From contig CAVQHW010000004.1 in assembly GCA_963712425.1 (NCBI GenBank), positions 216,670 to 280,669 on the forward strand: a DNA stretch of 64,000 nt, in the 5' to 3' direction. The notes beneath the pieces were generated by a model. The model was not told the origin of the DNA, made no database searches, and saw only the letters and a program-made list of their open reading frames with translations. Below are positions 10,504 through 46,127 of the stretch, piece by piece. The first letter of the stretch is position 1, and each line of letters starts with the position of its first letter. Both the position numbers and the translations under genes were made by a program. The DNA is from an uncultured Actinomycetota bacterium (GTDB lineage: Bacteria > Actinomycetota > Actinomycetes > JAHEKZ01).

Positions 10504-10524
10504 TCGCCCACCAGATCTGCTGGC

Positions 10525-11286: not shown

Positions 11287-11321
11287 GGTGGTCCTTTCCG
11301 GCGGCGGCTGGTACGGCGAGC

Positions 11322-13128: not shown

Positions 13129-13132
13129 CGTC

Positions 13133-13456: not shown

Positions 13457-13518
13457 CCAAAGGCTGTGAGCAAGTGGCAGGATCGGGTCATCTCACCTCA
13501 CCAACCTGTGGAGTTGTC

Positions 13519-13731: not shown

Positions 13732-13776
13732 TCGACAGCCCGCGTGACAGCGGGGGCGACTACCGCAGCCACTGCC

Positions 13777-15144
13777 TCAGGATGCCTGGCTGACTGTCGA
13801 CATGTTGAAATCGCGGACTCGGAGCGTTGGCATCGAGACTCGCGTGAAGAAGTCGTTCCACTCGCGGGGCAGCGCGGTGTCAGTAGTTGAGGCACCAGTC
13901 ACCCGTGAGAGCAGGTCGACCGGGCTTTCGTTGAAGCGGAAGTTGTTGACGGCGCCGACCACCTCACCGCCCTCGACGAGGTAGACGCCGTCGCGAGTCA
14001 ATCCAGTGAGCAGCAGGGTCTGGGGATCGACCTCGCGGATGTACCAGAGCGTCGTCAAGAGCAGCCCGCGCTCAGTGCTAGCGATGAGCGAGTCGAGCGA
14101 CTCAGTAGCGCCAGCAACTTCGAGGGCCAGGTTGTCGATCATGGGTGTGACGTCGCCCTTGGTCAGCGCAGCGGAGTGCCGAGTTTGTCCGAGGGCCGTC
14201 AGGCGGCCGTTGTCGATCCAGTTCGTGCGCTTCAGCGGCAGACCGTTGTCGAAGACTGACTCCGTCGATCCGGACGCGTGGGCGATGACGAAGGGCGCGC
14301 ACTCGATGCCGGGGTAGTGGGGGTCACTGATCAGACTCAGCGGTGACTCGGTGAGCTGCTCGCCGATCCGCGTACGCCCACCCGGCGACGAGAAGACCGT
14401 ACGCCCGTCCGCCGCGTCACGAGCAGCAGCTGACCAGTACTGATAGATCAGCAGATCGGCGACGGCCGACGGGGGTAGCAGGACCTCGTATCGACCCGGC
14501 TCCAGGTCAAGGGTGCGATCGGCCCAGCCGAGCCTGGTGCTGACGTCATCGTGAAGCTCACCAACGTCGATGTCTGAGAAGTCACGTGTAGAGCGCCCCA
14601 CCCACGTTGAGCGGGTCCGTTCGTGCGACTTGCCTGTGACCTCGAGCCGACCCGTCGGTTGAACATGACGAAGCCTGGTACCGGCGGTGTTGCCCAAGTA
14701 AGTGGTGGTGACGTCGTGCTCGGCGAATCCAAAGAGCTCGTGTCCGGCCGAGCGAGCCTGACCGAACCAGTCACCCAGCGCCGGCGCGAAGTCGCTGAAC
14801 ACCTCAGGGGACGTCTCAGCCGCCGGTTCAGAGAAGTCGTTGCCGAGGCTTCCGCCGACGAGGTCTGCTGCATCGGGTGCGGCTTCAGCCGTTCGTGCAG
14901 CGGCCTGAGCGCGCTCGACAATGCCAAGAACATCGTGTTGGTCCGCGACGCTTGCGCTAGCGACACCCACGGATCGCCCGCTCATCGCGATGACGGTGAG
15001 GTCTCTGCTCCGCATCACGCCGTTGGTGGTCAGCGTGTTTGCGGCCCATCGCAGGTTGGTCTGCGAGTGCTCTTGGCAGATGACGGTCAAGGCGTCGACC
15101 GAGCAGTGGCTGAGCGCGAGCTCGACGATCTCGTCCGGCCTCAT
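13777..15144 (-). CDS. pmbA: PmbA/TldE-family protein (peptidase U62, partner of TldD)
   Basis: 455 aa in the TldD/PmbA fold family but lacking HExxxH. It overlaps the tldD stop by 4 nt. Confidence 0.8.
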   Translation of the reverse strand: MRPDEIVELALSHCSVDALTVICQEHSQTNLRWAANTLTTNGVMRSRDLTVIAMSGRSVGVASASVADQHDVLGIVERAQAAARTAEAAPDAADLVGGSLGNDFSEPAAETSPEVFSDFAPALGDWFGQARSAGHELFGFAEHDVTTTYLGNTAGTRLRHVQPTGRLEVTGKSHERTRSTWVGRSTRDFSDIDVGELHDDVSTRLGWADRTLDLEPGRYEVLLPPSAVADLLIYQYWSAAARDAADGRTVFSSPGGRTRIGEQLTESPLSLISDPHYPGIECAPFVIAHASGSTESVFDNGLPLKRTNWIDNGRLTALGQTRHSAALTKGDVTPMIDNLALEVAGATESLDSLIASTERGLLLTTLWYIREVDPQTLLLTGLTRDGVYLVEGGEVVGAVNNFRFNESPVDLLSRVTGASTTDTALPREWNDFFTRVSMPTLRVRDFNMSTVSQAS

Positions 15145-16673
15145 CGGGCGCCCTCCGCTGCAGTGTTGAGGATGTTGACGTTGGTGAAGGTGGCCGATGG
15201 TGCTCCGTGGCTCACAGGAGCGACTTGCCCCGGTTGGGCCTTGCCGCAGTTGAAGGCGCCTCCCAAGACGTAAGTCTGTGGCCCCCCAACCGACGACATC
15301 GAGCGCCAGAAGTCGGTGGTGGTGGCCTGATACGCGACGTCCTTCAGCTGGCCGCTGAGTCGTCCGGACTTGATGCGGAAGAAGCGCTGGCCCGTGAACT
15401 GAAAGTTGTAGCGCTGCATGTCGATCGACCAGCTCTTGTCGCCAACGATGTAGATGCCATCGTCGAGCGCTGCAATCTGCTCTTCGGTCGAGGGACCATC
15501 ACTCTTCGGTTGCAGACTGACGTTGGCCATGCGCTGGATCGGTACATGCCCAGGGGAGTCGGCGAAGGCGCACCCGTTGGAACGGTCGTAGCCGACTCTT
15601 GAGGCGATCCGTCGGTCGAGCTGGTAGCCGACCAGCGTTCCGTCGCGAATGATGTCGAACTCTTGCGCGGCGACGCCCTCGTCGTCCCAGCCGACGCTCG
15701 ATAGCCCGTGCTTCACGGTGCGGTCGCCTGTGACATGCATCAGGTCAGATCCGTACTGCAGCGATCCGAGCTTGTCTGGCGTCGCGAACGACATTCCCGC
15801 GTAGTTCGCCTCATATCCGAGGGCACGATCGAGCTCGGTGGCGTGGCCGATCGACTCGTGAATCGTGAGCCACAGGTTGCTGGGGTCGATCACCAGGTCG
15901 TACTGGCCTGGATCGACGCTGGGAGCCTGCAACTTCTCGTTGAGCCATCCTGGCAACGCGGCCAGCTCGGACGACCAGTCGTATCCCGGGCCTGTCAGGT
16001 ACTCCCAGCCCTGGCCAACCGGCGGAGCGATGGTTGACATCGTCTCGAAAGCCCCAGTGGCTGGGTCGATGGTGACCGCTTCGAACTCGGGGTGCAATCG
16101 AACCCGCTGCTGCGTGGTGACGGTGCCGTCGAGGTCGGCGTAGAACTTGTTCTCTTTCACTGCGTAGAGCGAGGTATCGACGTGGTCAATGCCCTTGGCG
16201 TCGAGCAACTGTCGACTCCAACCCTGCAGTAGCGCGACCTTCGCATCGTTCGGAACCGTCCAAGGATCGGTCGTGTAGTCGGAGATCCACGTACCTTGGT
16301 GGGTGGGTTCAGGTGAAAGGTCGACCGGCTCGGTGTTGACCGGTGCACTGATCTTGGCAAGATCCAACGCTCGACGTGCGGTACGAACGGCTGCCTCTGG
16401 CGTCCGCTCGACATCGGAGGCGAAGCCCCACGTGCCATTCACGACCACTCGCACAGAGAAGCCGATGTCTTCGGCGTCGTTCACGCCCTCGAGCTCGGCG
16501 TCGCGAAGCCGGATCATGGTCGTGAGGATGCGCTCCATGCGAAACGCCGCATAACTGGCCCCGCCCTCGCGGGCTGTCTGTAGGGCGGCGTCGGCCAACT
16601 GTTGCATCGGCAGCGCCAAGAACTGCTCGTCGATCGATCGATTGCTCACCAGGCCTCCTGACTCGAAATCCAC
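15141..16673 (-). CDS. tldD: TldD-family metalloprotease (peptidase U62)
   Basis: 510 aa containing HESIGHATELD (the HExxxH metal site) and the conserved C-terminal GGxxxxG region. Confidence 0.82.
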   Translation of the reverse strand: MDFESGGLVSNRSIDEQFLALPMQQLADAALQTAREGGASYAAFRMERILTTMIRLRDAELEGVNDAEDIGFSVRVVVNGTWGFASDVERTPEAAVRTARRALDLAKISAPVNTEPVDLSPEPTHQGTWISDYTTDPWTVPNDAKVALLQGWSRQLLDAKGIDHVDTSLYAVKENKFYADLDGTVTTQQRVRLHPEFEAVTIDPATGAFETMSTIAPPVGQGWEYLTGPGYDWSSELAALPGWLNEKLQAPSVDPGQYDLVIDPSNLWLTIHESIGHATELDRALGYEANYAGMSFATPDKLGSLQYGSDLMHVTGDRTVKHGLSSVGWDDEGVAAQEFDIIRDGTLVGYQLDRRIASRVGYDRSNGCAFADSPGHVPIQRMANVSLQPKSDGPSTEEQIAALDDGIYIVGDKSWSIDMQRYNFQFTGQRFFRIKSGRLSGQLKDVAYQATTTDFWRSMSSVGGPQTYVLGGAFNCGKAQPGQVAPVSHGAPSATFTNVNILNTAAEGAR

Positions 16674-16792
16674 AGCGCGCTGGTCCCACAGAGGCCGAGC
16701 GACCTCCCGAACTTACCTGGCCATCGAGAGATTTGCGCTAGGCCGGTAGCGTTTCGGCTCCGTGGCGTGATCGTTGGTGGAGGTGGGTCGCT

Positions 16793-17497
16793 GTGGCGCG
16801 GTCAGTACTGGTGACAGGTGGAAATCGTGGGATCGGCTTGAAAGTGGCTGAGGCCTTCCTTGCCTTGGGCGACCAGGTCGCGATCACCTACCGGTCGGGT
16901 GAGCCCCCAGCCGGGTTCTTCGCGGTCAAGGCCGACGTCACCGATCCAGACTCCCTCGACGCTGCCTTCGCCGCGGTCGAGGAGCATCAGGGTCCGGTCG
17001 AGGTCCTGGTAGCCAACGCAGGAATTACGCACGACACGTTGCTGCTGCGCATGTCCGATGACGATTTCGACTCAGTGGTGCAAACGAACCTGGTGGGTTC
17101 GTTCCGTGTGGCGAAGCGAGCGGCCAAAGGGATGCTTCGCCTGAAGCGCGGTCGCCTGATCTTCATGTCCTCGGTTGTTGCGTTGCTGGGATCGGCCGGG
17201 CAAACGAACTATGCGGCGGCAAAGGCAGGAATGGTCGGGTTCGCGCGATCGGCAGCGCGAGAACTGGGTTCGCGAGGGATCACGGCCAACGTGATCGCGC
17301 CAGGCTTCGTTGACACCGATATGACTGCTGCTCTGTCCGAGGAGCAGCGCGACCGCATCATGGCTCAGATCCCGCTGGGGCGTTACGCGAGCACCCAAGA
17401 GGTTGCCGATGTCGTGACCTTCATCGCCAGTGACGCCGCCGGCTACATCACGGGCGCGGTGATCCCCATCGATGGTGGGCTGGGCATGGGGCACTAA
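16793..17497 (+). CDS. fabG1: 3-oxoacyl-ACP reductase MabA/FabG1
   Basis: 234 aa. Near-collinear with M. tuberculosis MabA (RSVLVTGGNRGIGL..., VEEHQGPVEVLV, NYAAAKAG, PIDGGLGMGH). Confidence 0.9.
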   Translation: MARSVLVTGGNRGIGLKVAEAFLALGDQVAITYRSGEPPAGFFAVKADVTDPDSLDAAFAAVEEHQGPVEVLVANAGITHDTLLLRMSDDDFDSVVQTNLVGSFRVAKRAAKGMLRLKRGRLIFMSSVVALLGSAGQTNYAAAKAGMVGFARSAARELGSRGITANVIAPGFVDTDMTAALSEEQRDRIMAQIPLGRYASTQEVADVVTFIASDAAGYITGAVIPIDGGLGMGH

Positions 17498-17557
17498 CCC
17501 CGCACTGAGCGGGGCCCTACGATCGTGGCGACTCACACCTCGACCGCTGGAGTTGGC

Positions 17558-18322
17558 ATGGGACTGCTGGACGGAAAGCAAATCCTGGTCACGGGGGTGC
17601 TGACCGAGGCATCAATCGCCTTTCATGTGGCACGGCTGGCCCAAGAGCAGGGGGCGACTGTCGTCCTGAGCTCGCAAGCGAGGACCGTTCGGCTGGTCGA
17701 ACGGATCGCCAAGCGGCTGCCTGACGGGGCTCCGGTCATCGAGCTCGATGTCGTGTCTGATGACGATCTCGCCGCGTTGCCCGAGCGGGTCGGCGCGCAT
17801 GTTGACCGCTTAGATGGTGTCCTGCACTCGATCGGCTTCGCGCCCGAAAGCGCACTCGGGGGCAACTTCTTGAACACCGAGTGGCCAGACGTCGCGGTGG
17901 CCCTGCAGGTGTCAGCCTTCTCGTTGAAGTCGCTGACCGTGGCGTGTCGACCGTTGCTCAGCGCGCATGCGTCGGTGGTTGGCCTGACGTTTGACGCTTC
18001 GTTCGCGTGGCCCGCGTATGACTGGATGGGCGTCGCAAAAGCGGCGTTCGAGTCGACGTCTCGCTACCTCGCCCGTGACCTGGGCGCATCGGGCGTGCGC
18101 GTCAACTTGATTGCGGCCGGTCCCATCAAGACCATGGCCGCAAAGAGCATCCCCGGATTCGACCAGTTCGCGCAGTGGTCCGAACGGGCTCCGCTGGGGT
18201 GGAACGTCGAGGACCCGGTGCCAGCCGCCCAAGGGTGCATTGCTCTGCTGTCGGAATGGTTCCCTGCAACGACCGGAGAGATCGTTCACGTCGATGGCGG
18301 GGCGCACGCGATCGGCGGCTGA
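17558..18322 (+). CDS. inhA: NADH-dependent enoyl-ACP reductase InhA/FabI
   Basis: Collinear with M. tuberculosis InhA (GLLDGKQILVTGV..SIAFHVARLAQEQGA, HSIGF, GVRVNLIAAGPIKT). ATG 17558 has GGAG 8 nt upstream. An alternative upstream ATG lies at 17525. Confidence 0.9.
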   Translation: MGLLDGKQILVTGVLTEASIAFHVARLAQEQGATVVLSSQARTVRLVERIAKRLPDGAPVIELDVVSDDDLAALPERVGAHVDRLDGVLHSIGFAPESALGGNFLNTEWPDVAVALQVSAFSLKSLTVACRPLLSAHASVVGLTFDASFAWPAYDWMGVAKAAFESTSRYLARDLGASGVRVNLIAAGPIKTMAAKSIPGFDQFAQWSERAPLGWNVEDPVPAAQGCIALLSEWFPATTGEIVHVDGGAHAIGG

Positions 18323-18323
18323 C

Positions 18324-18800
18324 ATGCGGACTCTTGTACTGCTTCGTCACGGCAAGTCGTCGTACCCCGATGGGGTCGATGACCACGACCGACCTCTGAA
18401 CGGGCGTGGCGAGCGTGAGGCGCCAATCGCCGGGCGTCTGATCGCCGAGGCGCTGCCCACCGGTGCGGTCGTCGACGAGGCGCTCGTTTCGTCCGCGACA
18501 CGCGCTCAGCAGACGTGGGAGCTCGTGCGCGAGAGCGTGACGCCGCGAGCCACGCGAACGCTGCCAGAGCTCTACTTGGCGACTCGTTCGGAGTTGCTCG
18601 ACGTGGTGAACGCTTTGCCGGTCTCTGACGTAGTCATCATCGTCGGACACAACGAGGGGCTCGAAGAACTGGCGGCGTGGCTGACAGGTACGCCGGTCGT
18701 CCTGACAACGTCCACCTACGCCCGGATGTCGAGCGACCTTGACTGGGCGGATTGGACTGAGGGGTGCGCCGAGCTTGTAGAGGTGGCCGCGGGTCGATAA
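18324..18800 (+). CDS. SixA-like histidine phosphatase family protein
   Basis: Starts with the RHG catalytic motif (MRTLVLLRHGKS) and has a later GHNEG motif. The ATG lies 1 nt after the inhA TGA (TGACATG). Confidence 0.75.
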   Translation: MRTLVLLRHGKSSYPDGVDDHDRPLNGRGEREAPIAGRLIAEALPTGAVVDEALVSSATRAQQTWELVRESVTPRATRTLPELYLATRSELLDVVNALPVSDVVIIVGHNEGLEELAAWLTGTPVVLTTSTYARMSSDLDWADWTEGCAELVEVAAGR

Positions 18801-32209: not shown

Positions 32210-33487
32210 TTAGTCAGAGTTTGCGGCGCCAGGGCTGGGTGCGAGTGACCAACTGACGCCCTCGGGGGTGTCTTGCACCTCGACGCCACCAGCGCCGAGC
32301 ACGTCACGAATGAGGTCACTGGTGGCGTAGTCCTTCTGATCACGTGCGGACGCGCGTGCCTCGAGCAGCGGCTCGACAAGTGGCGCGACGATCGTCGCTG
32401 GATCGGTGGTGCCAATCCGCGCCAGTTCACCGAGTCGGACGACCATGGCGCGCAGCTGCCTTCGCGCACGGTCGATCGCGTCGCTTTGCAGGGTGTCAGC
32501 CGACCACGCCTGAATGGCGTCGTCGATTGCCAGCACGGCGGCGACCGCGGCGTCCACGTCGCGTGCTTCAAGTGCGCTATCGAAGGCATCGCGATGCGCA
32601 GCGACGTCACGTTCGAGAGATGGGGCAGATGCCTCCGGTGATGCCTTCGGTTCTGCTGGTGCTGCTGACCGAGGCGTGGCCTCAGCCGGCGCGGGCCTGT
32701 TGGCGCTGAAGACCGCTTTGAAGTCGGCCACCGTCATGACCGTTCCGGAAGGGATCACCTCGGCGCTGCCTTGTCGACGCACTGTCACGCCGCCGGTGCC
32801 AGAGACCTCGACCCGTTCGGCACCCAGGTCGATCATCAGCGCGGTGTGCTCGTCGACCCCCAGAACGGCGGCGCCGTCGTCGAGTTGCTGCTCCATCGCC
32901 GCGAGTCGATCGAGGCCGAGGTAGCAGAACCGGGTGTCGTAGGTTCCCCCCTCGGCGTTGTCGAAGTGGGGGACAACCGCCAGCGTGAGGTCAAGAAACT
33001 CCGCCAGGAGGTCAAGCCCCTGAACCCATGCAGGCTCGGCGCCGACCTTGTAGATCTCGTAGACCGGAAGTGCCCATCTCCCTGCCGTGACGGCGGCGGC
33101 GCTCCCCAGCGTGACCGTGCCGCCGCGTCGCACCACATCCGAGATTGCTCCCGCCATAGGCGTTCCTTGCCATTGACCCAACGCATACGTGGGGCTACCT
33201 GGCCCAGCGAAGAGCCAGGACGCCTGACTCACCTCAGCTAGCGCCTGATCGTGACCCGTGTCGTCACGCGAGCGCCAACGGGCCGCGCGGACGGTGTGCC
33301 CGACGGAGTCGGCGAAGTAGCGAAGGGTGCGGTGGGTGAGGTCATCAGCGTTGACCTGGAAGCCGTAGGGAGTATCGAGCATCACGGCTGGGCCTGAGCC
33401 TGAGCTGGCGAGCACCGCACGGTGGGTCTTGACCATTGCAGGCGCGGTTTCGCCTGACCCCATCAATACGATTCGGCCGTCAGTCAC
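32210..33487 (-). CDS. Fusion protein: N-terminal peptidase-S51/cyanophycinase-like domain, Pro/Ala-rich linker, and a C-terminal cysteinyl-tRNA-synthetase-type anticodon-binding (DALR-2-like) helical domain
   Basis: The N-terminus (IVLMGSGETAP...GSAAAVTAGRW) resembles class-I glutamine-amidotransferase-like S51 hydrolases. The C-terminus (RDVDAAVAAVLAIDDAIQAW ... RASARDQKDYATSDLIRDVLGAGGVEVQDTPEGVSW) matches the CysRS C-terminal R-x-ARK-KDW-AADxxRDxLxxxGI-LEDxPxGTxW pattern. Confidence 0.6.
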   Translation of the reverse strand: MTDGRIVLMGSGETAPAMVKTHRAVLASSGSGPAVMLDTPYGFQVNADDLTHRTLRYFADSVGHTVRAARWRSRDDTGHDQALAEVSQASWLFAGPGSPTYALGQWQGTPMAGAISDVVRRGGTVTLGSAAAVTAGRWALPVYEIYKVGAEPAWVQGLDLLAEFLDLTLAVVPHFDNAEGGTYDTRFCYLGLDRLAAMEQQLDDGAAVLGVDEHTALMIDLGAERVEVSGTGGVTVRRQGSAEVIPSGTVMTVADFKAVFSANRPAPAEATPRSAAPAEPKASPEASAPSLERDVAAHRDAFDSALEARDVDAAVAAVLAIDDAIQAWSADTLQSDAIDRARRQLRAMVVRLGELARIGTTDPATIVAPLVEPLLEARASARDQKDYATSDLIRDVLGAGGVEVQDTPEGVSWSLAPSPGAANSD

Positions 33488-33505
33488 TGCGCGTCCTTGG
33501 CTTGC

Positions 33506-34363
33506 TCACTGTGCCGATCCTTGCACGCGATCGATCAAGGCGAACACCTGCTCTGCGACAACGTCTGGCTGCTGCAGGTGAATGTCGTGATGGGCTTCCG
33601 GGTACCAACGTGCAGTGGCGTCTGGCAGCTGCTCGAGCGCCTGGTCGACATCCTCGGACGTCGCCTTACCGGCCACGATCAGGCTCACCGGTACGTTGAC
33701 GCGGCCGTAGTTCGTTGCCGGATCGTCTTCCCACAGCGAGTGCACGATGCTCCGATGGTGCTCGAACGAGAGCCGATTGCGGACGCGGCCGTCAACGACC
33801 TCGAGATTGCCCATGATCGCGTCCACCGAATGTGCTGGCCATCCTCGAACAAAGCCCTGAATACGTGCTAGCGCCTGCTCGGGGGTGGCATCGCCGAAGC
33901 TCGGTGGCTTGAGTGCTGCCCAGCACTCGTCGAAATCGGCGAACCGTGGCTGCAGGTGGATCCAGCCACCGTCGACGCACATGACACCGCCCCAGAGCGC
34001 GCTCTGCGCGGCACTGTGAATGGCGACGTTGGCACCCCACGACTGGCCGACGACTAGCGGGCCGGACGCCTGCCACCCCAAAGCAGCGGCGAGCGCAGTC
34101 ACATCATGGGCTGCCTGCGCGGTCGTGTAGCCCGTCGAAGGGGCCTCGGAGCGGCCGTGTCCGCGCAGATCGACTGCCGCAACAGCGTGGCCTCGGGCGG
34201 CCAACGTCTCGGCGACCTGGCGCCACAGCAGCGCGTTGGAGGCGAGCCCGTGCATCAGGAGCACCGGGCGTCTGTTGCCTTCGTGAGATCTCACGGCAAG
34301 TGAGGTTCCGTCGGGGAGCGCCACCATGGTCGGGGGCCACCACGTGTCGTCCGGCCAGGTCAT
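33506..34363 (-). CDS. Alpha/beta-hydrolase fold protein
   Basis: 285 aa with an HGxxS(N) oxyanion region (LLMHGLASNALLW), a nucleophile elbow (VGQSWGANV) and a C-terminal His. Confidence 0.75.
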   Translation of the reverse strand: MTWPDDTWWPPTMVALPDGTSLAVRSHEGNRRPVLLMHGLASNALLWRQVAETLAARGHAVAAVDLRGHGRSEAPSTGYTTAQAAHDVTALAAALGWQASGPLVVGQSWGANVAIHSAAQSALWGGVMCVDGGWIHLQPRFADFDECWAALKPPSFGDATPEQALARIQGFVRGWPAHSVDAIMGNLEVVDGRVRNRLSFEHHRSIVHSLWEDDPATNYGRVNVPVSLIVAGKATSEDVDQALEQLPDATARWYPEAHHDIHLQQPDVVAEQVFALIDRVQGSAQ

Positions 34364-34535
34364 GGGGTGGCCTTGTGCCGTACGGCGTCGATGAGGGATG
34401 CCGTACGTAGCGAGAGCGTCGATGACGGGACGTAGGCGCTTTCATCGCCATCGATCGCCTTCGAAACGTGCTCCAGCATCAGTTGGTACGCGTCGCAGGG
34501 GGCGAACTTCTCGCTCCACCGCTCGCCACCGTCGG

Positions 34536-35325
34536 TCAGAGGTCCAAGCTGGACTCGGCATGCCAGTTGGTGAATGCGCTGCCGACCCATGTCACCGACA
34601 GATCGTCTGCCGCCACTCGCAGGGCCTGATGCTCAGGGCTGATGAACGACGCCTCGACGGACGCCGTGGCGATCTCGGTCTTCAGCGTGGCTGTCGTGCT
34701 GAGGTCGGCGCCTCGATCATTGAGGACAACATCGGCATCCGTCACCGAGCAGTCGTCACCACCCCAGTCGACAACTGGTGCGAGCACATAGGGGCCGAGG
34801 TCGAGCAATGCTCCACCACCCTTGGAGGCATCCAGCCGGTAGTTGGCATCTGGGACGCCATTGAAGGTGAATCGCGCGTCGATGTCGTGCACGCGCCCGT
34901 GAGCCCCGTTGCCCAGGAGGGCGTCGGCCCGCCGATGGCGTGGATGCCAACGCACCCAGGTGGCTTCGACTAGCAGCTTGCCGTGGGCCTCTGCCGCAGC
35001 GAACGCGCGCTGGCAGTCCTCCGCGCTCATCGCGAGTGGCTTCTCGCACAACACGTGCTTGCCGGACTCCAAACTCGCGAGAATCCAGGGCACGTGGAGG
35101 TCGTTGGACAGTGCGATGTACACCGCGTCGACCGTCGGATCGTTCACGAGGTCTCGATAGGTGTCGTGTACGCGTTCTGGTTCGAGAGCCTGCCGCCCGT
35201 TCGGGGTCACGTGCCGCGGCGGCGTGAAGCGTGACGCCGGACGCGGCGTGCGCGGCGGGGGCCAATGCCTTCGTCGCAATGAAACCAGCGCCGAGGAATC
35301 CCCAACGAACAGCGTGGTGTGTCAC
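34536..35325 (-). pseudogene. Gfo/Idh/MocA-family NAD(P)-dependent oxidoreductase with a frameshift near 35185-35200
   Basis: The N-terminal Rossmann segment MTHHAVRWGFLGAGFIATKALAPAAHAASGVTLHAAAARDPERAA is in one frame. The continuation LEPERVHDTYRDLVNDPTVDAVYIALSNDLHVPWILASLESGKHVLCEKPLA... is in another. Its start abuts the stop of the upstream 554-aa gene. Confidence 0.7.
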
Positions 35326-36986
35326 TGTTCCCCGTCGACACGAACGGGTTCGCCACGGGAGTGCGCAGAAGCACGCGCCGCGTCCATCACCGCGACCACT
35401 CGACGTGACTGTTCGACTGTGACGCTCATCGGCCAGTCGTACAGCAACTCGTCAACAAGCTCGCGGTGGAACCCGAACTGCGGAATCTGCGGAGGAACGA
35501 GTTGGGTCTCTGCTCCAGACGCGTCGATCAGCAGCACGTCAGGGGGCGCGTCCGTCACCAGCAGGCGGTCCTCGGCGAGCGTGCCGATCTCGGTGCGAGA
35601 AATAACCGCCTCGTGTCGCCACCGACTGGTGAGCGCACCCTCGGTTCCCAGCAAGTACCAGCGGGGTTTGAGTGCGGCAGCGAGGTCGGAGTGAACGAAG
35701 CTTGCCTCCGCTCCGTCGTCGAATCGGATGGTCATCGAGGTGTGGTCGGCATTTGTCACATCAAGCCACCGTCGCTTGTGCTCTATCGCGGTGACATGCC
35801 TGATCGGCCCGGGGTGCAGGGCCAACACCTGGTCAAGAATGTGGGAGCCCCAGTCGTACACGGCGCCGCCGGAGACGTCAGCGTCGGAGTGCCAGTAGTT
35901 GCAGGGGTGACCGTAGCCGCCGATGAATGTTTCGAGGTGGAAGAGATCCCCGACTTTGCCCGCGTCGAGGGCGCCGCGAATCGAGAGAAAATCGGGGTCA
36001 TACCGACGGTTCTGATAGACGACTGCATGGCGTCCGGTGTCGGTTGCGGCGGCGAGGACTCGATCGGCGTCGTCCACCGAGATCGCTAGGGGTTTCTCAA
36101 TGACGACGTCTTTGCCGGCGTGCAAAGCTCGCTCTGCCCAGTCGGCGTGACTGTCGGGTGGGGTCGACACGACGATGAGGTCGACGTCTGACTCGAGCAG
36201 CTCTGATGGCTCGGTCGTAGCCCGGACTCCCGGCGCGTGTTCCGTTGCGGCTTGGACGCGCGCCTGGTTTCTGTCGCAGACCATCGTCAACTCAAGGCCC
36301 GGTAGTGCATGTACGGCCTTGGCATGCTCGGCCCCGATGGCACCGAAGCCCAAAAGGCCGACCCGCCGGCTTGGCGTGGCCGCAGGTCCGTCGATGCCCA
36401 ATGCACGTCGCATCGCGAGATGGAGCAGGCGGGCGTAGGACGCCGTAGCAATCGCATCGCCGAGTTCGGGCATCGCGGTGAAGGTGCCGACTGACGTCTC
36501 GGGGTTCCACGTCAGAACGGGATGGTGGCTAAGCCCCAGTGGTGCTGACAACCACACTTCGACGCTGTCTCGAAGCTTGTCGATGGTGAGCACTGACGTG
36601 GTGAGTTCTACGGAGGGTTCCACGGGGCACACTCGACGAATCCACGGCTCTTGGCCCTGAGGCTGAAGCCGGGAAGGGTGAGGCCCGACCCATGACCGAG
36701 CAACAACTCCGCTCGCCTCGCGGAGGGTAGGGAGATCGGACGTCAGGGACCGCCCCATCAGGATTGTCGGATTGCCGCGACTGGCCCCAGCGGCAACTGC
36801 GTCCTGGCGAGCGTCGCTCAAGCCCAGGGGTGACCACACCAAGCAAACGCCTTCTGGCGTCTCGTCTTGGCGGGACAGCGTGGTACGCCACCCTGCCCGG
36901 GTAAGGAGCCGATCGAGGTCAGCCTGTACTGCTGATTCACGCGGGCTGAGATCGCCCAGAACCCACGCCAACTGCTGCCTACCCAC
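35322..36986 (-). CDS. Two-domain protein: an uncharacterised N-terminal domain of about 210 aa fused to a Gfo/Idh/MocA oxidoreductase
   Basis: 554 aa. Residues from about 215 show a Rossmann motif (RVGLLGFGAIGAEHAKA), EKPLA and the C-terminal Gfo/Idh/MocA alpha/beta domain. The N-terminal domain has no motif I recognise. Confidence 0.65.
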   Translation of the reverse strand: MGRQQLAWVLGDLSPRESAVQADLDRLLTRAGWRTTLSRQDETPEGVCLVWSPLGLSDARQDAVAAGASRGNPTILMGRSLTSDLPTLREASGVVARSWVGPHPSRLQPQGQEPWIRRVCPVEPSVELTTSVLTIDKLRDSVEVWLSAPLGLSHHPVLTWNPETSVGTFTAMPELGDAIATASYARLLHLAMRRALGIDGPAATPSRRVGLLGFGAIGAEHAKAVHALPGLELTMVCDRNQARVQAATEHAPGVRATTEPSELLESDVDLIVVSTPPDSHADWAERALHAGKDVVIEKPLAISVDDADRVLAAATDTGRHAVVYQNRRYDPDFLSIRGALDAGKVGDLFHLETFIGGYGHPCNYWHSDADVSGGAVYDWGSHILDQVLALHPGPIRHVTAIEHKRRWLDVTNADHTSMTIRFDDGAEASFVHSDLAAALKPRWYLLGTEGALTSRWRHEAVISRTEIGTLAEDRLLVTDAPPDVLLIDASGAETQLVPPQIPQFGFHRELVDELLYDWPMSVTVEQSRRVVAVMDAARASAHSRGEPVRVDGEQ

Positions 36987-37042: not shown

Positions 37043-37104
37043 CCTAGGCCCCCCGAGCCGATCTCGCAGCCGCCGCGGCGGCTACTCACACAGTGCGGGG
37101 CCTA
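37043..37104. terminator. Nested GC-rich palindrome downstream of purU
   Basis: CTAGGCCCC (37043-37051) pairs with GGGGCCTAG (37096-37104, overlapping the purU stop). A perfect 14-bp palindrome GCCGCCGCGGCGGC sits inside it at 37068-37081. Confidence 0.45.
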
Positions 37105-37965
37105 GCGGAAGACGACCGTGCGGTGGCCGTTGAGCAGGATGCGGCTCTCGGCATGCCAGAGGACCGCACGGGCCAGGGCCTGGCACTCTACGTCGCGACC
37201 CACTGTCACGAGCTTCTCCGGCGACAAGGTGTGATCGACCCGCGCAACCTCTTGCTCGATGATGGGGCCCTCGTCGAGGTCGGTTGTCACGTAGTGCGCG
37301 GTCGCACCGATGAGTTTCACGCCGCGCTCGTGTGCCTGGTGGTACGGCTTACCGCCTTTGAAGCTGGGTAGGAAAGAGTGATGGATGTTGATCGCCTTGC
37401 CATTCAGCGCCCGACACAGGTCTTCGGATAGCACCTGCATATAGCGCGCCAGCACCACGAGGTCGACCGACTCTTTGTCGACGAGGTCGAGCAGCTGCTG
37501 CTCAGCTTCTGGCTTGGTCTCGGCGGTGACGGGTATGTAGTGGAACGGGAAACCGTAGTCGTCGACCAGGCTCTCGTAGTCACGGTGATTGGAGACCACG
37601 CCGGCAACATCGATCGGCAAGGCGCCAATGCGGTGCCGGAAGAGCAGGTCGTTGAGGCAGTGACCGAACCTTGAGACCATCAGCAGAACCCGAGGCCGTT
37701 CTTCGGCGCCACGAAGAATGAAGTCCATGTCGAACGTCGTTGACATCCGCTCGAAGTCCCGTTGCAGGGTGTCGAGTTCGTCGCCGTCCGAGCAGAAGAA
37801 TCGGACCCGCATGAAGAAGATGCCGGTGTCCTGGTCGCCGTACTGTTGGCTCGAGATGACGGTGCAGTTGTGCTGCACGAGGAAGCTCGAAACGGCGTAG
37901 ACGACACCCGGCCTGTCAGGGCATGAGAGCGTCAGGATGAACTGGGGGTGTCCGGAGGGCGCCAT
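37102..37965 (-). CDS. purU: Formyltetrahydrofolate deformylase PurU
   Basis: N-terminal ACT domain (FILTLSCPDRPGVVYAVS) and a formyl-transferase core (HHSFLPSFKGGKPYHQA...DEGPII). ATG 37965. The ORF-track N-terminal extension was rejected. Confidence 0.88.
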   Translation of the reverse strand: MAPSGHPQFILTLSCPDRPGVVYAVSSFLVQHNCTVISSQQYGDQDTGIFFMRVRFFCSDGDELDTLQRDFERMSTTFDMDFILRGAEERPRVLLMVSRFGHCLNDLLFRHRIGALPIDVAGVVSNHRDYESLVDDYGFPFHYIPVTAETKPEAEQQLLDLVDKESVDLVVLARYMQVLSEDLCRALNGKAINIHHSFLPSFKGGKPYHQAHERGVKLIGATAHYVTTDLDEGPIIEQEVARVDHTLSPEKLVTVGRDVECQALARAVLWHAESRILLNGHRTVVFR

Positions 37966-38057
37966 GGTGATCCTGGGGGAGAGGAATGCGGAACAAGAGT
38001 AGGGTATCAACTGATAGCCTAGGTCGACGAGCCGTTCCACGACGTGAGGGGGCCGTG

Positions 38058-38690
38058 ATGGCGAGTGTCGTTGAGGACGCTGAGCGGCGAGTACTAGACC
38101 TGCGGGGCACCCCACGTCCGCAATGGGGCACCAAAGACCGCATTCTGTTGGCCGCGTCCCAGTTGTTCGCGGTACACGGATTTCGCGGCGCGTCGACCCG
38201 CGCCATTGCCGATCAAGTGGGCGTGCGCCAGCCATCGTTGTTCAAACACTTTGGGTCCAAGCGCGACATGCTCGGTGAGCTAGCCATCTTCGACATGCAT
38301 GTTCCGGCGCAGCATGCACAGCGCGCCGCCGCAGGCGAGGGGCCAGCGACAGACCGACTCGCCGCCTACTTGGCATGGGACTTTGAGTGGTACCGCACCA
38401 TGCCGTTCGACCTACGAGGCATGACCGATGACCTGGTGCGCAGTGAGGGACTGACCGAGGCGCAACGGGCACTCGGGCGCTGGACGCGGTCTATCAAGTC
38501 GATCCTCAAGCAAGGGGTCGAGTCAGGCGAGTTCGCCCCAGGGTCTGTGCGCTTTGTGCCGCCTGTCATCGAGACGTTGAGTTGGCACATGGTGCAGTCG
38601 TCGTCAGCCACGGGCAAGACGGTCGACGATGGCGTCCGCTTCGTGCTCGCTGCAGTGCTCGCTCCGACAGTGGACGACTCCACCACCTAA
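38058..38690 (+). CDS. TetR-family transcriptional regulator
   Basis: TetR HTH (ILLAASQLFAVHGFRGASTRAIADQVGVRQPSLFKHFGSK). Divergent from purU. Start is probably ATG 38058; the ORF track starts at 37986. Confidence 0.78.
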   Translation: MASVVEDAERRVLDLRGTPRPQWGTKDRILLAASQLFAVHGFRGASTRAIADQVGVRQPSLFKHFGSKRDMLGELAIFDMHVPAQHAQRAAAGEGPATDRLAAYLAWDFEWYRTMPFDLRGMTDDLVRSEGLTEAQRALGRWTRSIKSILKQGVESGEFAPGSVRFVPPVIETLSWHMVQSSSATGKTVDDGVRFVLAAVLAPTVDDSTT

Positions 38691-39198: not shown

Positions 39199-39212
39199 CA
39201 GATTTCACACGG

Positions 39213-39297
39213 TGTCCGAGGGGGGACTTGAACCCCCAAGCCCTTTCGGGCACTAGCACCTCAAGCTAGCGCGTCTACCAGATTCCGCCACTCGGAC
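39213..39297 (-). tRNA. tRNA-Leu (anticodon GAG), class II with a long variable arm; CCA not encoded
   Basis: Reverse complement is GTCCGAGTGGCGGAATCTGGTAGACGCGCTAGCTTGAGGTGCTAGTGCCCGAAAGGGCTTGGGGGTTCAAGTCCCCCCTCGGACA. It has a 7-bp acceptor stem, anticodon loop CTTGAGGTG (anticodon GAG) and T-loop GGTTCAAGTCC. Confidence 0.85.
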
Positions 39298-42885: not shown

Positions 42886-43611
42886 GTGACGACAGTGCTA
42901 CTGATCCGGCATGGCCGGACGACGGCCAATGCTGATGGCACGCTGGCGGGGTGGACGCCAGGCGTCCATCTCGATGACCTCGGCAACGAGCAAGCCGCCG
43001 CTCTCGCCACGCGTCTCGCCGGGGTCCCACTAACAGCGGTGCTGTCGAGCCCGCTCGATCGCTGCCAGCAGACTGCTCGCGCGATCGCCGAACAGCGAGA
43101 GCTCGCAGTGCAACTAGATGAAGACCTTGGCGAAGTGCGCTACGGAGATTGGACCGGACAACCCCTGAAGACGCTCAGTCGAGATCCGCTCTGGAAGGTC
43201 GTGCAGCAGCATCCGAGCGCCGTGACGTTTCCTGGCAAAGGCGGAGAAGGCCTCGCGGCAATGCAGGCAAGGGCGGTGGCCTCCGTGCGCCGCTGGAATG
43301 CAGAGCTTGGGTCAGACGCTGTAGTCGCCGTGGTCTCTCATGGCGATGTCATCAAGGCGTTGCTGGCTGACGCGCTCGGCATGCATCTCGACCTCTTTCA
43401 GCGAATCACCGTCGACCCTGCTTCACTGAGCGTTGTCCGTTACGCCGGCACGCGGCCGTTCGTCGAACGCATCAACGATGGCGGTGGAGATGTGACCGCC
43501 CTCATCCGCAAGAAGCGAAGGCGCAAGTCGGCTAAGTCCGACGACGCGGTTGTCGGCGGAGGGGCCGGACCTGCAGCACGACCCTCGCGCAGCAGACGGA
43601 GAAGCTCATGA
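42886..43611 (+). CDS. Histidine-phosphatase superfamily protein (Rv2135c-like)
   Basis: RHG motif (LLIRHGRTTAN) and a downstream SHGDVI motif. Confidence 0.75.
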   Translation: MTTVLLIRHGRTTANADGTLAGWTPGVHLDDLGNEQAAALATRLAGVPLTAVLSSPLDRCQQTARAIAEQRELAVQLDEDLGEVRYGDWTGQPLKTLSRDPLWKVVQQHPSAVTFPGKGGEGLAAMQARAVASVRRWNAELGSDAVVAVVSHGDVIKALLADALGMHLDLFQRITVDPASLSVVRYAGTRPFVERINDGGGDVTALIRKKRRRKSAKSDDAVVGGGAGPAARPSRSRRRSS

Positions 43612-44144
43612 CCATTCATTCCTTTACTGACCCTGAGCGGTTCGTGGCCGGAACCGTCGGTCCTCCTGGGCAGCGCGTCTTCTTTCTTCAAGCCCACGAT
43701 GGCAAGCGCACGACGAGCGCTGCGGTTGAGAAGGAACAGGTCCGCATCCTCGCGGAGCGCCTAGACGGCATGCTTGACCTGTTGCTTCGGCGAGGCGTCA
43801 CCGACCCACCGATCCCTGTGGTGCCTGACCCCTCCGACAAAGACACCGAACCCCTGTCTGCGCCAGTCGAAGAAGACTTCCGGGTCTCTGTTCTCCGCAT
43901 TGCATGGGACGCAGACGCTGAGCGAGTGCTGATCGAGGCGGCATCTGAGCCGGCCGACGATGACGAAGAGGAGTTGAGCGGCGACATCTTGTCGGTGCGC
44001 ATTACCGGACGCGCCGCCCGGGCATTCGTCGCGCGGGCCGAGTCGGTCGTCGCTGCCGGCCGCCCACCGTGCCCCTTCTGCACATTGCCTCTCGATCCTG
44101 AGGGCCACATCTGCCCACGCTCCAATGGGTATCGCCGGCGATGA
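43608..44144 (+). CDS. DUF3090-family protein (Rv2134c-like) with a C-terminal Cys cluster
   Basis: 178 aa ending CPFCTLPLDPEGHICPRSNGY. It overlaps the neighbouring stops and starts. Confidence 0.6.
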   Translation: MTIHSFTDPERFVAGTVGPPGQRVFFLQAHDGKRTTSAAVEKEQVRILAERLDGMLDLLLRRGVTDPPIPVVPDPSDKDTEPLSAPVEEDFRVSVLRIAWDADAERVLIEAASEPADDDEEELSGDILSVRITGRAARAFVARAESVVAAGRPPCPFCTLPLDPEGHICPRSNGYRRR

Positions 44145-44857
44145 CCCTCGAGTCGATCGACCTCGACTCCGGAGAGCTGGAGGTCGTGGGCCAACTGGTC
44201 GACGCGTCGAATGCGAGTTTGCTGTGTCGGTTGCGCAGCGGTCGGGACGGCACGATGCGTCAGGTGATCTACAAGCCGCGAATCGGGGAGCGTCCGCTGT
44301 GGGACTTTCCGGAAGGCACGCTGAGTCAGCGTGAGGTTGCTGCGCGAGTCGTGGCAGAGTCGCTGGGTTGGCGCATCGTTCCCCCCACGGTGTGGCGCGA
44401 CGGGCCGTTCGGTCCAGGCATGGTTCAGGAGTGGATCGACGTCGACCTGAGTGTTGATCCAGTGCAGCTCGTGCAGAGTGATGACGAGTTGCTCCGTCGC
44501 ATCGCGGTCTTCGATGCGCTGATCAACAATGGCGACCGCAAGGGTGGCCACCTGCTGCCAGATGCCAACGGTGCGATCTGGGGGATTGACCACGGCGTGA
44601 CGTTTGCGGTGTCCGGCAAACTACGCACGGTGCTGTGGCAGTGGCGCGGCGAGGTCATTCCGGACGTGCTGTTGAGCGACGTCGAGCAGTGGCTCGGGGA
44701 GTGGGACGCAGGAGCTCAGTGGCTAGGGCAACTCATGGCACTTCTCTCAGCCGAAGAGATGGCAGCGCTGCGTGCGCGCGCCGATGAGCTGCTGCTCACG
44801 CGCACACACCCCGAACCTTCGCCTGACTGGCCGCCGATCCCATGGCCACCCTTCTGA
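44141..44857 (+). CDS. SCO1664-family protein (Rv2133c-like; PI3/4-kinase-like fold)
   Basis: 238 aa with the DRKGGH...DHG kinase-like catalytic motifs. Confidence 0.6.
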
Positions 44858-44891
44858 CCATCCCCACACGGCCCAGATAGGCTCTCGCGTC

Positions 44892-46127
44892 GTGGAGTCC
44901 TGGTCGCAACCGCCGGTGCCGTCGCTGCCTGGCGATGGCCGGAAAGTGTCGCTGTTCGACACGACCTCTGGGCGCACAACCCCTTCAGAGCCTGAGGGCA
45001 CAGCCTCGCTGTATGTCTGCGGGATAACCCCCTACGACGCGACGCACCTCGGACACGCCGCCACATACATCGCGTTCGACCTGCTTCAGAGAATGTGGCT
45101 CGACAACGGTCACGACGTGCACTACGTACAAAACGTCACCGACATTGATGATCCGCTTCTCGAACGGGCCGTTGCCACGGGGCAGGATTGGCAAGAGTTG
45201 GCTCGCGCCGAGACCTCGCTGTTCTGTGAAGACATGGCGGCGCTCGGCGTCCTACCACCGCGTGAGTACATCGGTGCCGTTGAGTCCATCCCGCTGATCG
45301 TTGAGCGGATCGACGAGCTCCTCGCTTCAGGGTCGGCCTATCGAGTGGACGACGACATCTACTTCGCCACTTCGAGCGATCCGGACTTCGGATCTGTCGG
45401 CTCCTACGATCGGCCCCGGATGCTTGAGCTCTTCGCCGAACGCGGTGGCGATCCTGACCGTGCTGGCAAGAAGGACCCGCTCGACCCGCTGTTGTGGCAG
45501 GCAGAGCGTCCTGGCGAGCCAGCGTGGGATACCCATTTAGGTCACGGTCGCCCGGGCTGGCACATTGAGTGCACCGCCATCGCCTTGCACTACCTCGGCG
45601 AGCGGTTCGACGTTCAGGGCGGCGGCAGTGATCTGATTTTCCCGCACCACGAGATGGGTGCGTCACAAGCGCACCTGCTCACTGGCAAGCGACCATTTGC
45701 CACGCACTTCGTTCACACCGGAATGGTCGGTCTCGATGGCGAGAAGATGTCGAAGTCGAAGGGCAACCTGGTCTTCGTCTCCCGCCTGCGTGATGACGGT
45801 CATGATCCGATGGCGATTCGCTTGGCTCTTCTTGCACACCACTATCGCGACGACTGGGACTGGACGGACGCCGACCTCGCGTCCGGCGAGGATCGCTTGC
45901 TGCGCTGGACAATCGCTGCCACCTCCGAGCGTGGGCCTGCTTCAGCGCCCGTGATCACTGAGGTTCGGGAGGCTCTGGCAGATGATTTGAATGCTCCCCG
46001 TGCCCTCGCGGCGATCGATGCTTGGGCCGACGCGGTGGCCGCTGGTACCGGCGACGACTCTGATGCACCGCGAGCGATCGCTGATCTGAGCGAGAGCTTG
46101 TTGGGCGTCACGCTTCGAAGCGAGTAA
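44892..46127 (+). CDS. mshC: L-cysteine:1D-myo-inositol 2-amino-2-deoxy-alpha-D-glucopyranoside ligase MshC (mycothiol biosynthesis)
   Basis: Collinear with M. tuberculosis MshC ([43 protein letters not shown]). It lacks the CysRS C-terminal extension. A likely GTG start at 44892; the ORF track starts at 44772. Confidence 0.9.

Follow-up and report, generated by a model that had tools for sequence, protein, structure and literature searches.

The fusion gene and its neighbours

The window (the whole stretch of 64,000 nucleotides that was analysed, from an uncultured Actinomycetota bacterium) carries on its minus strand a gene for a 425-aa protein in which a peptidase-S51-like hydrolase domain is joined to a region derived from cysteinyl-tRNA synthetase (CysRS). 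The features of the locus are collected in Table 1. The open reading frame called in the first-pass annotation holds: it begins with GTG at 33487, an AAGGA ribosome-binding site precedes it, and the consensus N-terminus of the family, MSRIVxMGSGETAP, supports this start. Full-length homologues run to 400-450 aa; the longer family members have extended N-termini or longer linkers only, and no extra domains were found in them. The three-part layout proposed earlier is also that of the AlphaFold2 model (mean pLDDT 86), in which the sole long disordered stretch is residues 269-286 (pLDDT <50). The linker is shorter than the 40 aa first given, at ~26 aa by pLDDT and homologue statistics; across homologues it measures 23-55 aa.

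Table 1. Features of the fusion gene and its surroundings (window coordinates)
Feature	Position	Strand	Basis
Fusion gene, S51-like / CysRS-anticodon-module protein, 425 aa	32210..33487, stop codon included	-	ORF list and translation
AAGGA ribosome-binding site	33494..33498	-	6 nt before GTG; read from sequence
N-terminal domain, residues 1-262, peptidase-S51 / class-I glutamine-amidotransferase-like	32702..33487	-	AlphaFold2, Foldseek, phmmer and profile searches
Ser129 codon (GSAAAV), predicted nucleophile	33101..33103	-	aligns with Ser of 6nqc SAGA motif; codon checked
His174 codon (VPHFDN), predicted general base	32966..32968	-	aligns with His of 6nqc IPHF; codon checked
Glu213 codon (VDEHTAL), predicted third triad residue	32849..32851	-	aligns with Glu of 6nqc IDEVTAL; codon checked
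Linker, residues 263-288, disordered, Ala/Pro/Gly/Ser-rich	32624..32701	-	pLDDT; length and composition statistics
Helical region, residues 289-370, collinear with CysRS helical (DALR-2) region	32378..32623	-	four long predicted helices
CysS_C module, residues 371-414, CysRS anticodon-binding alpha/beta domain	32246..32377	-	PF23493, profile, hhalign; codons checked
Alpha/beta hydrolase, 285 aa, upstream partner	33506..34363	-	Pfam Abhydrolase_1, Abhydrolase_6, Hydrolase_4
Gfo/Idh/MocA oxidoreductase, two frameshifts	34363..35325	-	Pfam on fragments; tblastn
554-aa protein, ~200-aa N-terminal extension + Gfo/Idh/MocA; first gene of apparent operon	35322..36986	-	Pfam
mshC	44772..46127		TIGR03447, 646 bits

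The fusion gene starts 18 bp past the stop codon of the alpha/beta-hydrolase gene, and the two oxidoreductase genes lie upstream of that. Hydrolase and oxidoreductases share one strand with the fusion gene, as in the operon described earlier; the shorter Gfo/Idh/MocA gene is broken by two frameshifts (tblastn with the intact orthologue from locus L003 runs through frames -2, -3 and -2). The alpha/beta hydrolase is the conserved partner in Actinomycetota: in 52 of 83 loci its gene directly precedes the family gene, in the same orientation. Its matches in PDB and NCBIfam are generic and none is informative. The oxidoreductases are orthologous to genes of a Desulfobacterota locus, L088: the 554-aa protein, whose N-terminal extension has no Pfam match, to a 550-aa fusion of a weak ThuA match with Gfo that comes after the family gene there (37% identity), and the shorter one to a 336-aa gene (36% identity). 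In both phyla, the window included, the family is linked to such a pair: a Gfo fusion of ~550 aa with a Gfo protein of ~330 aa.

The mshC gene of the window matches the cysS model only up to position 372 of 466; it therefore lacks the anticodon module, as had been claimed of this CysRS paralogue. Its proximity to the fusion gene, to which the first-pass annotation had drawn attention, did not survive comparison: neither mshC nor cysS lies beside the family gene in any of 163 related loci, so that the separation of the two genes by 11 kb in the window does not reflect a conserved link. In three related actinobacterial loci mshA is found 4-5 kb from the family gene; a tRNA-Cys gene adjoins it in none of 48 loci.

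An S51-like hydrolase domain

The N-terminal domain is modelled mostly at pLDDT >90. Its best Foldseek match is 6nqc, an uncharacterised acI-B1 peptidase (E 1.4e-14, TM 0.81 on target), which phmmer and profile searches also retrieve; pseudo-CphB, PepE and cyanophycinase come next (E 1e-9 to 1e-12), and further matches include 7uqv, 6a4r (E 1e-10), 3en0 (E 3e-10) and 1fy2 (E 2e-9). The S51/cyanophycinase-like fold that had been read from the letters is thus borne out by the model. Ser129, the serine of GSAAAV already singled out as candidate nucleophile, His174 and Glu213 occupy places equivalent to the Ser, His and Glu motifs of PepE, CphB and 6nqc, and would form a Ser-His-Glu triad of the S51 kind. 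All three are invariant in 46 and 33 aligned homologues covering both branches of the family, and Ser129 is invariant in three alignments (A1, A3 and A4).

The domain nevertheless stands apart from known S51 proteins. The window protein has no match to Pfam PF03575 at gathering score; some relatives reach 17-18 bits against a cutoff of 23.9, and part of the non-actinobacterial branch has precomputed matches. The family has two invariant inserts of its own, PVYEIYKVG and EGGTxDTRFC, and carries a 160-aa C-terminal extension that is present in none of the solved S51 proteins.

A C-terminal region derived from CysRS

The C-terminal region falls into two parts of unequal standing. Residues 371-413 match Pfam CysS_C (PF23493) at 25.5 bits against a cutoff of 23, and all 25 family members scanned match the same domain (best E 6.6e-9); a family profile retrieves only CysRS chains from PDB (E 2.6e-9 to 3e-6), and hhalign pairs the module with residues 416-459 of E. 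coli CysRS at E 2e-8 to 1.6e-11. On these matches the last ~45 structured residues can be taken as a genuine CysRS anticodon-binding domain. The helical region before them is collinear with CysRS, as TIGR00435 aligns fusion residues 295-414 to model positions 343-464; by itself the likeness is insignificant (hhalign E 0.16), and Pfam DALR_2 (PF09190) matches none of the family members scanned. The earlier assignment of the last 130 aa to CysRS accordingly stands for the tail and not for the DALR-2 part. Foldseek with the C-terminal model places CysRS (1u0b) first, with poor global superposition (TM 0.39).

In the 1U0B structure, E. coli CysRS contacts the GCA anticodon through R427, W432, D436 and R439 (PMC13449415). 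These positions map to R382, Y387, D391 and R394 of the window protein, and are kept as R/K, aromatic (F/Y/W), D and R, invariant or nearly so, in both branches; conserved C-terminal residues could also be retained for structural reasons. Compared with CysRS as a whole, then, the fusion protein shares significant homology with the C-terminal domain (E. coli 414-459) and its four anticodon-contact residues, whereas the class-I Rossmann catalytic domain (tRNA-synt_1e) is not present, the DALR-2 likeness is not significant, and the module is attached to a hydrolase instead.

Distribution and prior annotation

Each of two homology searches returned more than 7,000 full-length relatives, distributed over Actinomycetota, Desulfobacterota and Chloroflexota; the family comprises 471 clusters at 50% identity (E <= 1e-30), and at least 592 GTDB species genomes carry it. 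Both domains are conserved as one unit across phyla, and the architecture is never lost. Family members already carry PF23493, with or without PF03575, in public annotation, under such names as ‘cyanophycinase-like exopeptidase’, ‘peptidase E’ and ‘CysS/YqeB C-terminal domain-containing protein’. With thousands of proteins on record and both domains annotated, the description of the fusion as previously unrecognised was too strong. The accompanying remark, that no characterised member was known to its author, agrees with a literature search, which found neither a study of the family nor a characterised member; a 2022 review of aaRS paralogues gives, for CysRS, only CysRS* and MshC. What is new is the gene context; the domain architecture was public. 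The last of the database names is a generic label, also placed on CysS fragments, and E. coli YqeB, considered as a relative because of it, has no such domain.

The first two names suggest one way to understand the family, as ordinary S51 exopeptidases acting on Asp-X or cyanophycin-type dipeptides, in which the CysRS-derived region is a structural or oligomerisation relic without an RNA role. In keeping with this, the family gene often has a small additional S51 gene as its neighbour, and the hydrolase and C-terminal domains are both net acidic (medians -8 and -8.5). The account is nonetheless quite improbable: polar anticodon-contact residues are invariant over phylum-level divergence, the N-terminal domain scores below the Pfam S51 cutoff because of its divergence and has inserts of its own, and no loss of the architecture is seen.

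Mycothiol-like operons outside Actinomycetota

In the non-actinobacterial branch, the family gene heads a same-strand operon in which it is followed by genes for a GNAT protein, an MshA-like GT4 glycosyltransferase (TIGR03449 at 311-347 bits; next family at most 126 bits), a PIG-L deacetylase (best matches BshB1, Mca and MshB), Ino1 (TIGR03450, 414 bits) and a phosphatase. Among the 37 loci with at least 3 kb of sequence beyond the family gene, 22 have GT4 downstream (16 of 17 within the closer sub-branch), and 22 have GNAT directly downstream. The cluster is missing from about 40% of this branch and, apart from the mshA near the family gene in three of them, from all 83 actinobacterial loci. 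The nine-gene operon of locus L141 has a candidate for each mycothiol step but Cys ligation, no ATP-dependent ligase was found in it, and mshC/cysS homologues number zero in the 80 non-actinobacterial loci. Judged by gene content, the operon looks like a mycothiol route without MshC, in which the fusion gene sits at the ‘missing’ Cys-adding step of otherwise MshA/MshB/Ino1-like operons.

The GNAT protein might itself fill that step. In this scenario the fusion protein would be an adaptor, holding Cys-tRNA-Cys by its anticodon for a GNAT/FemAB-like transferase while the S51 domain merely proofreads. The frequent position of the GNAT gene directly downstream is in accord with such a partnership, as is a weak match of its product to FemAB_like (24 bits; cutoff 27), Fem-type enzymes being known to take aminoacyl-tRNA as donor. 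The strong Pfam match of the GNAT is to Acetyltransf_6, however, which also fits an MshD-like N-acyltransferase, and no match in PDB or NCBIfam is informative; GNAT is missing in the actinobacterial loci and in clusters L088 and L121, both of which keep the fusion gene and GT4 (L088 also PIG-L); and the invariance of the triad speaks for catalysis by the S51 domain itself. Of the explanations weighed here this is the least probable.

Proposed cysteinyl transfer and competing accounts

A different perspective starts from MshC, which in mycothiol synthesis performs the corresponding step with ATP. Both proteins derive a part from CysRS, MshC keeping the catalytic core without the anticodon module and the fusion protein the reverse. 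The fusion protein has no ATP-binding motif; any ligation would thus have to use pre-activated Cys-tRNA. The reading preferred here, at a probability of roughly 0.38, is that the protein docks on tRNA-Cys and takes Cys off Cys-tRNA-Cys, probably placing it on an amine of GlcN-inositol type. That is, the C-terminal module would dock on the GCA anticodon; the flexible linker would give the catalytic domain enough reach for the tRNA 3' end, ~75 Å off; Ser129 would attack the cysteinyl ester to give a Cys-O-Ser enzyme intermediate, in the manner of S51 peptidases, which attack the bond that follows a free-amine N-terminal residue; the cysteinyl group would then pass to the free amine of the acceptor, whose nature is suggested by gene context; and in the absence of an acceptor hydrolysis would be the default. 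Since the window genome encodes a bona fide MshC, the protein does not replace MshC there; it may serve a parallel or salvage route, or a related acceptor, partnered by the alpha/beta hydrolase co-transcribed with it and by the pair of sugar-type oxidoreductases.

The proposed chemistry has precedents. FemXAB, L/F-transferase and TglB-type PEARLs move an aminoacyl group from tRNA to the amine of a non-ribosomal acceptor. SbzA, which is IleRS-like, is a further example (PMC9437257). Transferases of this kind have GNAT, LanB-like or aaRS folds; none is known to have an S51 Ser-His-Glu triad or a detached anticodon-binding domain, and the fusion protein, S51-like by Foldseek, does not have the GNAT-type fold. 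Counting against transfer are the weak FemAB_like signal of the GNAT, which could itself be a tRNA-dependent transferase, the net-acidic domains, and the lack of a mycothiol-like cluster in Actinomycetota and in about 40% of the other branch. The broader proposition, that the family constitutes a new class of serine-triad cysteinyl transferases reading the tRNA-Cys anticodon through a domain taken over from CysRS and performing the Cys ligation of a mycothiol-like thiol pathway where MshC is missing (Desulfobacterota and other non-actinobacteria), is more doubtful than the preferred reading of the protein itself.

The first-pass annotation had suggested an enzyme directed to tRNA-Cys, with editing or deacylation among the candidates. 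The domain calls and the conserved anticodon contacts uphold the general idea; the mycothiol-like gene context favours amino-acid transfer over editing. A free-standing Cys-tRNA-Cys deacylase or editing factor, in which the S51 domain hydrolyses a wrong or damaged aminoacyl group or simply discharges the tRNA, is rather improbable: the tight same-strand linkage to MshA-like, PIG-L, Ino1, GNAT and sugar-oxidoreductase genes would be left unexplained; the fusion protein has no known editing fold, with no match to YbaK/INS, AlaX or DTD domains in Pfam, NCBIfam or PDB; and CysRS reportedly requires no editing (Newberry 2002, cited in PMC9736012). This account rests on structural evidence identical to that for transfer, and it sits well with a family that is broadly conserved and housekeeping-like, with no fixed operon in many lineages; new trans-acting deacylase families, such as CtdA, are still emerging (PMC12449066). 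YbaK, AlaX, DTD and CtdA are single-purpose hydrolases of the aminoacyl ester on a specific tRNA, as the fusion protein would be on this account, but their folds are unrelated to it, the searches matched it to none of them, and none is known to read the anticodon through a synthetase-derived domain. A variant would have the enzyme repair oxidised Cys-tRNA, sulfinate resembling the aspartate that S51 enzymes prefer.

Linkage to a mycothiol-like cluster would be accounted for equally well if the tRNA were a signal and not a substrate. In this version the protein is a tRNA-Cys-controlled amidase acting on a thiol of Cys-GlcN-inositol type or on another aminoacyl-amide: the S51 domain would cut the N-terminal Cys from Cys-GlcN-Ins, as PepE cuts Asp-X, and the C-terminal module would sense uncharged tRNA-Cys, so that stored cysteine is freed in cysteine starvation. 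S51 enzymes, PepE and cyanophycinase among the structural neighbours, are exopeptidases that free an N-terminal residue with a free amine; coexistence with MshC in the window genome and the catabolic-looking hydrolase and oxidoreductase partners in Actinomycetota fit as well. Still, the non-actinobacterial operon would be left without a cysteine-adding enzyme, unless the GNAT does this, and to assume allosteric control of a hydrolase by tRNA is more elaborate than to assume that the tRNA is used as substrate; the amidase is unlikely, if the least so of the alternatives to transfer.

Implications

If transfer of cysteine from Cys-tRNA-Cys is correct, it would give a function to an uncharacterised family whose members number well over ten thousand, and the fusion would be the first known case of an anticodon reader of synthetase origin steering a non-synthetase catalytic domain to Cys-tRNA. 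Both halves of ancestral CysRS, the core in MshC and the anticodon module here, would then have been independently recruited to cysteinylate GlcN-inositol. The operons pose the question of how cysteine is added where neither MshC nor BshC is encoded; a tRNA-dependent route would imply a mycothiol-like low-molecular-weight thiol in sulfate-reducing and related bacteria, in which, to our knowledge, such thiols are not known. For Actinomycetota, the same reading would mean that tRNA-Cys and thiol metabolism are connected in a second way, in addition to MshC.

Domain organization of the fusion protein

An AlphaFold2 model of the fusion protein, built on an alignment of 46 homologs (mean pLDDT 86), predicts that residues 1-262 form an alpha/beta domain, which is followed by a disordered segment (269-286; pLDDT <50) and then by four or five long helices (291-399), with a beta hairpin (402-415) at the very end. 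The domain architecture is fixed across the family; the interdomain linker is flexible and varies from 23 to 55 aa, and extra length in longer members lies only there.

The end of the C-terminal part is, as the first-pass annotation proposed, the tail of cysteinyl-tRNA synthetase (CysRS). The cysteinyl-tRNA ligase anticodon-binding domain of Pfam (CysS_C, PF23493) covers residues 371-413 of the window protein with a score above the gathering threshold and is found in 25 of 25 members of the family; in the PDB, a profile built from the final 139 residues retrieves cysteinyl-tRNA synthetases and nothing else (E 2.6e-9 to 3e-6); hhalign equates residues 371-414 with E. coli CysRS 416-459 at 95-97% probability. 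Similarity of the C-terminal region is otherwise limited to a collinear alignment with CysRS 332-461, with resemblance at the motif level (FDxALxxRDVDxAV in the family, FxxAMxDDFNTPEA in CysRS). A 2026 engineering study chose R427, W432, D436 and R439 of E. coli CysRS as anticodon contacts in 1U0B (PMC13449415); these align with R382, Y387, D391 and R394 of the window protein. Across the family, the four positions hold R (some K), an aromatic residue (F/Y in Actinomycetota, W elsewhere), an invariant D and an invariant R. That exactly these polar residues persist in domains about 25-40% identical speaks for, rather than demonstrates, continued recognition of the GCA anticodon; the acidic net charge of both domains (medians -8 and -8.5) counts against it.

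The predicted fold places the N-terminal domain firmly in peptidase family S51. Its top Foldseek match in the PDB is 6nqc, a peptidase of an acI-B1 actinobacterium (E 1.4e-14; TM 0.81 on target); others are pseudo-CphB (7uqv), PepE (6a4r, 1fy2) and cyanophycinase (3en0, 7uqw). The same 6nqc is the sole match at the sequence level (E 0.001 with the single protein, 3.4e-7 with the family profile); Pfam Peptidase_S51 has no match in the window protein and scores slightly under the cutoff in some relatives. The predicted triad, S129 of GSAAAV, H174 of VPHFDN and E213 of VDEHTAL, aligns with S, H and E of the 6nqc motifs and shows no substitution in any family alignment made, in keeping with the original proposal of a cyanophycinase-like class-I amidotransferase fold with its nucleophile in GSAAAV. 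Family-specific motifs are equally invariant: GSGE, LDTPxGFQxN, GPGSPxY, PVYEIYKVG and EGGTxDTRFC.

Family size and novelty

The window protein as query retrieved >7,900 matches, the best 120 of which are all about 410-450 aa; a HMMER search of all cluster representatives yielded 471 clusters at E <= 1e-30, almost all full length; and the fusion is encoded in at least 592 GTDB species genomes, among them Actinomycetes, Acidimicrobiia, Nanopelagicales, Micromonosporaceae, Pseudonocardiaceae, Kineosporia and a few Chloroflexota. A second branch, found via a distant member (34% identity), comprises >7,000 proteins from Desulfobacteraceae, Syntrophobacteria and other 'Deltaproteobacteria'. Source databases call these proteins 'cyanophycinase-like exopeptidase', 'peptidase E', 'Type 1 glutamine amidotransferase-like domain-containing protein' or 'CysS/YqeB C-terminal domain-containing protein'. 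The first-pass annotation, largely right about the protein, had called the fusion previously unrecognized; with thousands of relatives and both domains already tagged by automatic annotation, that is overstated for the architecture but holds for the function: a literature search found no functional study of the family, and a review of synthetase paralogs gives for CysRS only CysRS* and MshC (PMC9437257). The NCBI name 'CysS/YqeB C-terminal domain-containing protein' covers family members (P0308, P0418) and CysS fragments alike; Pfam and hhalign found no such domain in E. coli YqeB.

Neighbors in the Actinomycetota

The four minus-strand genes of the window (G+C 64%) abut or overlap: 4 bp are shared by the 554-aa oxidoreductase gene and the Gfo/Idh/MocA gene, the latter ends where the alpha/beta-hydrolase gene starts, and 18 bp separate the hydrolase stop from the fusion-gene start. 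No terminator-like site was found between them. The Gfo/Idh/MocA gene of the suggested operon is broken by two frameshifts, which mark it as a pseudogene or else reflect an error of assembly.

Coordinates of features in the window and in two related loci
Locus	Feature	Position	Strand	Remarks
Window	Fusion gene	32210..33487	-	425 aa; GTG start, AAGGA ahead of start
Window	Gfo/Idh/MocA gene	34363..35325	-	Two frameshifts vs intact 320-aa ortholog of close relative L003 (tblastn frames -2, -3, -2): 1-bp insertion near 35194-35204, second near 34539
Window	554-aa oxidoreductase	35322..36986	-	N-terminal ~200 aa: no Pfam match
Window	PurU-like gene	37102..38235	-	ACT + Formyl_trans_N
Window	tRNA-Leu(GAG)	39211..39297	-	Adjoins PurU-like gene
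Window	mshC and genes upstream	42886..46127	+	MSMEG_4193-family phosphomutase, TIGR03847 protein, SCO1664-family protein
Window	mshC	44772..46127	+	TIGR03447, 646 bits
L001 (actinobacterial)	AlaX-like tRNA_SAD protein	12888..13628		1.6 kb downstream of family gene
L001	mshA, bona fide	15067..16386		TIGR03449, 642 bits; 3.8 kb downstream of family gene
L141 (non-actinobacterial metagenome contig)	Nine-gene operon, compact	9179..18689	+	Small S51, fusion gene, Gfo fusion, Gfo, GNAT, MshA-like GT4, PIG-L, Ino1, HAD phosphatase

In 52 of 83 related loci, the hydrolase is the gene directly upstream of the family gene and has the same orientation, with the two often overlapping by 4 bp; the oxidoreductase pair occurs in about 16 of the 83 (Acidimicrobiia included); a cold-shock gene is common to close relatives only. 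The nearby mshC does, as first described, lack the C-terminal CysRS module; in none of 163 related loci is mshC near the family gene. In L012 and L044, mshA again lies 4-5 kb downstream. Six Acidimicrobiia loci (L022, L026, L066, L068, L072, L077) have a same-strand cluster of tRNA-Glu(UUC), tRNA-Asp(GUC) and tRNA-Phe(GAA) about 60-170 bp after the family gene; tRNA-Cys adjoins it in none of 48 loci scanned. The ORF listed for the PurU-like gene carries some 90 additional residues, so that its true start is probably further downstream.

Mycothiol-like clusters outside the Actinomycetota

The main new result is the gene context in the non-actinobacterial branch. Three Desulfobacterota contigs share one layout: small S51 gene, fusion gene, an optional oxidoreductase pair (a ~550-aa weak ThuA + Gfo fusion and a ~336-aa Gfo protein), GNAT, GT4 glycosyltransferase, PIG-L deacetylase, His_Phos_1 phosphatase and inositol-phosphate synthase. 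By far the best NCBIfam match of the GT4 protein is MshA (311-347 bits, full length; next family <=126 bits); the deacetylase best matches BshB1, BshB2, Mca and MshB; the synthase matches mycothiol-type Ino1; the GNAT matches Acetyltransf_6 and, weakly, FemAB_like. Every score is under the equivalog cutoff, so these are called MshA-like and so forth, not proven orthologs. In 80 further metagenomic loci, the same strand and order recur for GNAT (27), GT4 (25), the Gfo fusion (23), PIG-L (17) and small S51 (14); of the 37 loci that extend at least 3 kb downstream, 22 have GT4, as do 16 of 17 in the closer sub-branch. The two oxidoreductases of L088, a locus of this branch, are orthologous to the pair in the window and actinobacterial loci (36-41% identity), and the family's linkage to both genes therefore crosses phyla. 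The L088 ortholog of the 554-aa protein has a weak match to ThuA, another class-I amidotransferase-like fold.

The L141 operon holds candidates for every mycothiol step (Ino1, MshA-like, phosphatase, deacetylase, N-acyltransferase-like GNAT) except cysteine ligation. It contains no ATP-dependent ligase, and none of the 80 metagenomic loci has an mshC or cysS homolog; the fusion protein is the sole cluster protein with a cysteine-related element. The His_Phos_1 gene of the Desulfobacterota cluster L087 is distantly related to the MSMEG_4193-family phosphomutase upstream of mshC in the window, which puts the phosphatase family forward as a candidate for the unassigned GlcNAc-Ins-P phosphatase step.

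A possible role with tRNA-Cys

The fusion protein is related to S51 peptidases by fold and ends in a CysRS domain. It lacks the domains that define the MshC, Fem, PEARL and trans-editing families and belongs to none of them. Its proposed mode of action is like that of aminoacyl-tRNA-dependent transferases, and SbzA, an IleRS homolog that transfers tRNA-bound Ile to a metabolite, is a precedent (PMC9437257). The C-terminal module would bind the GCA anticodon; the linker would span roughly 75 Å to the acceptor end; Ser129 would attack the cysteinyl ester, whose aminoacyl group has a free amine just as the N-terminal residue of an S51 substrate does; and the acyl-enzyme would then pass its cysteine to the amine of a GlcN-inositol-type acceptor (transfer) or lose it to water (deacylation). 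A second precedent is DALRD3, in which an ArgRS-type anticodon-binding domain targets a methyltransferase to tRNA-Arg.

Transfer is favored over deacylation, both by the missing step and by clusters L088 and L121, in which the fusion gene is retained without GNAT. Against transfer by the fusion protein, GNAT could itself be the true tRNA-dependent transferase, the window genome also has MshC, actinobacterial loci have a hydrolase partner instead of biosynthetic neighbors, and about 40% of non-actinobacterial loci show no cluster. Second in rank is a tRNA-Cys-controlled amidase that would free Cys from a Cys-GlcN-inositol thiol; it would suit the actinobacterial context no less well than cysteinyl transfer. 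The linkage of the fusion family to genes of the GlcN-inositol pathway is conserved, and the analysis of context sharpens the hypothesis into a testable form.
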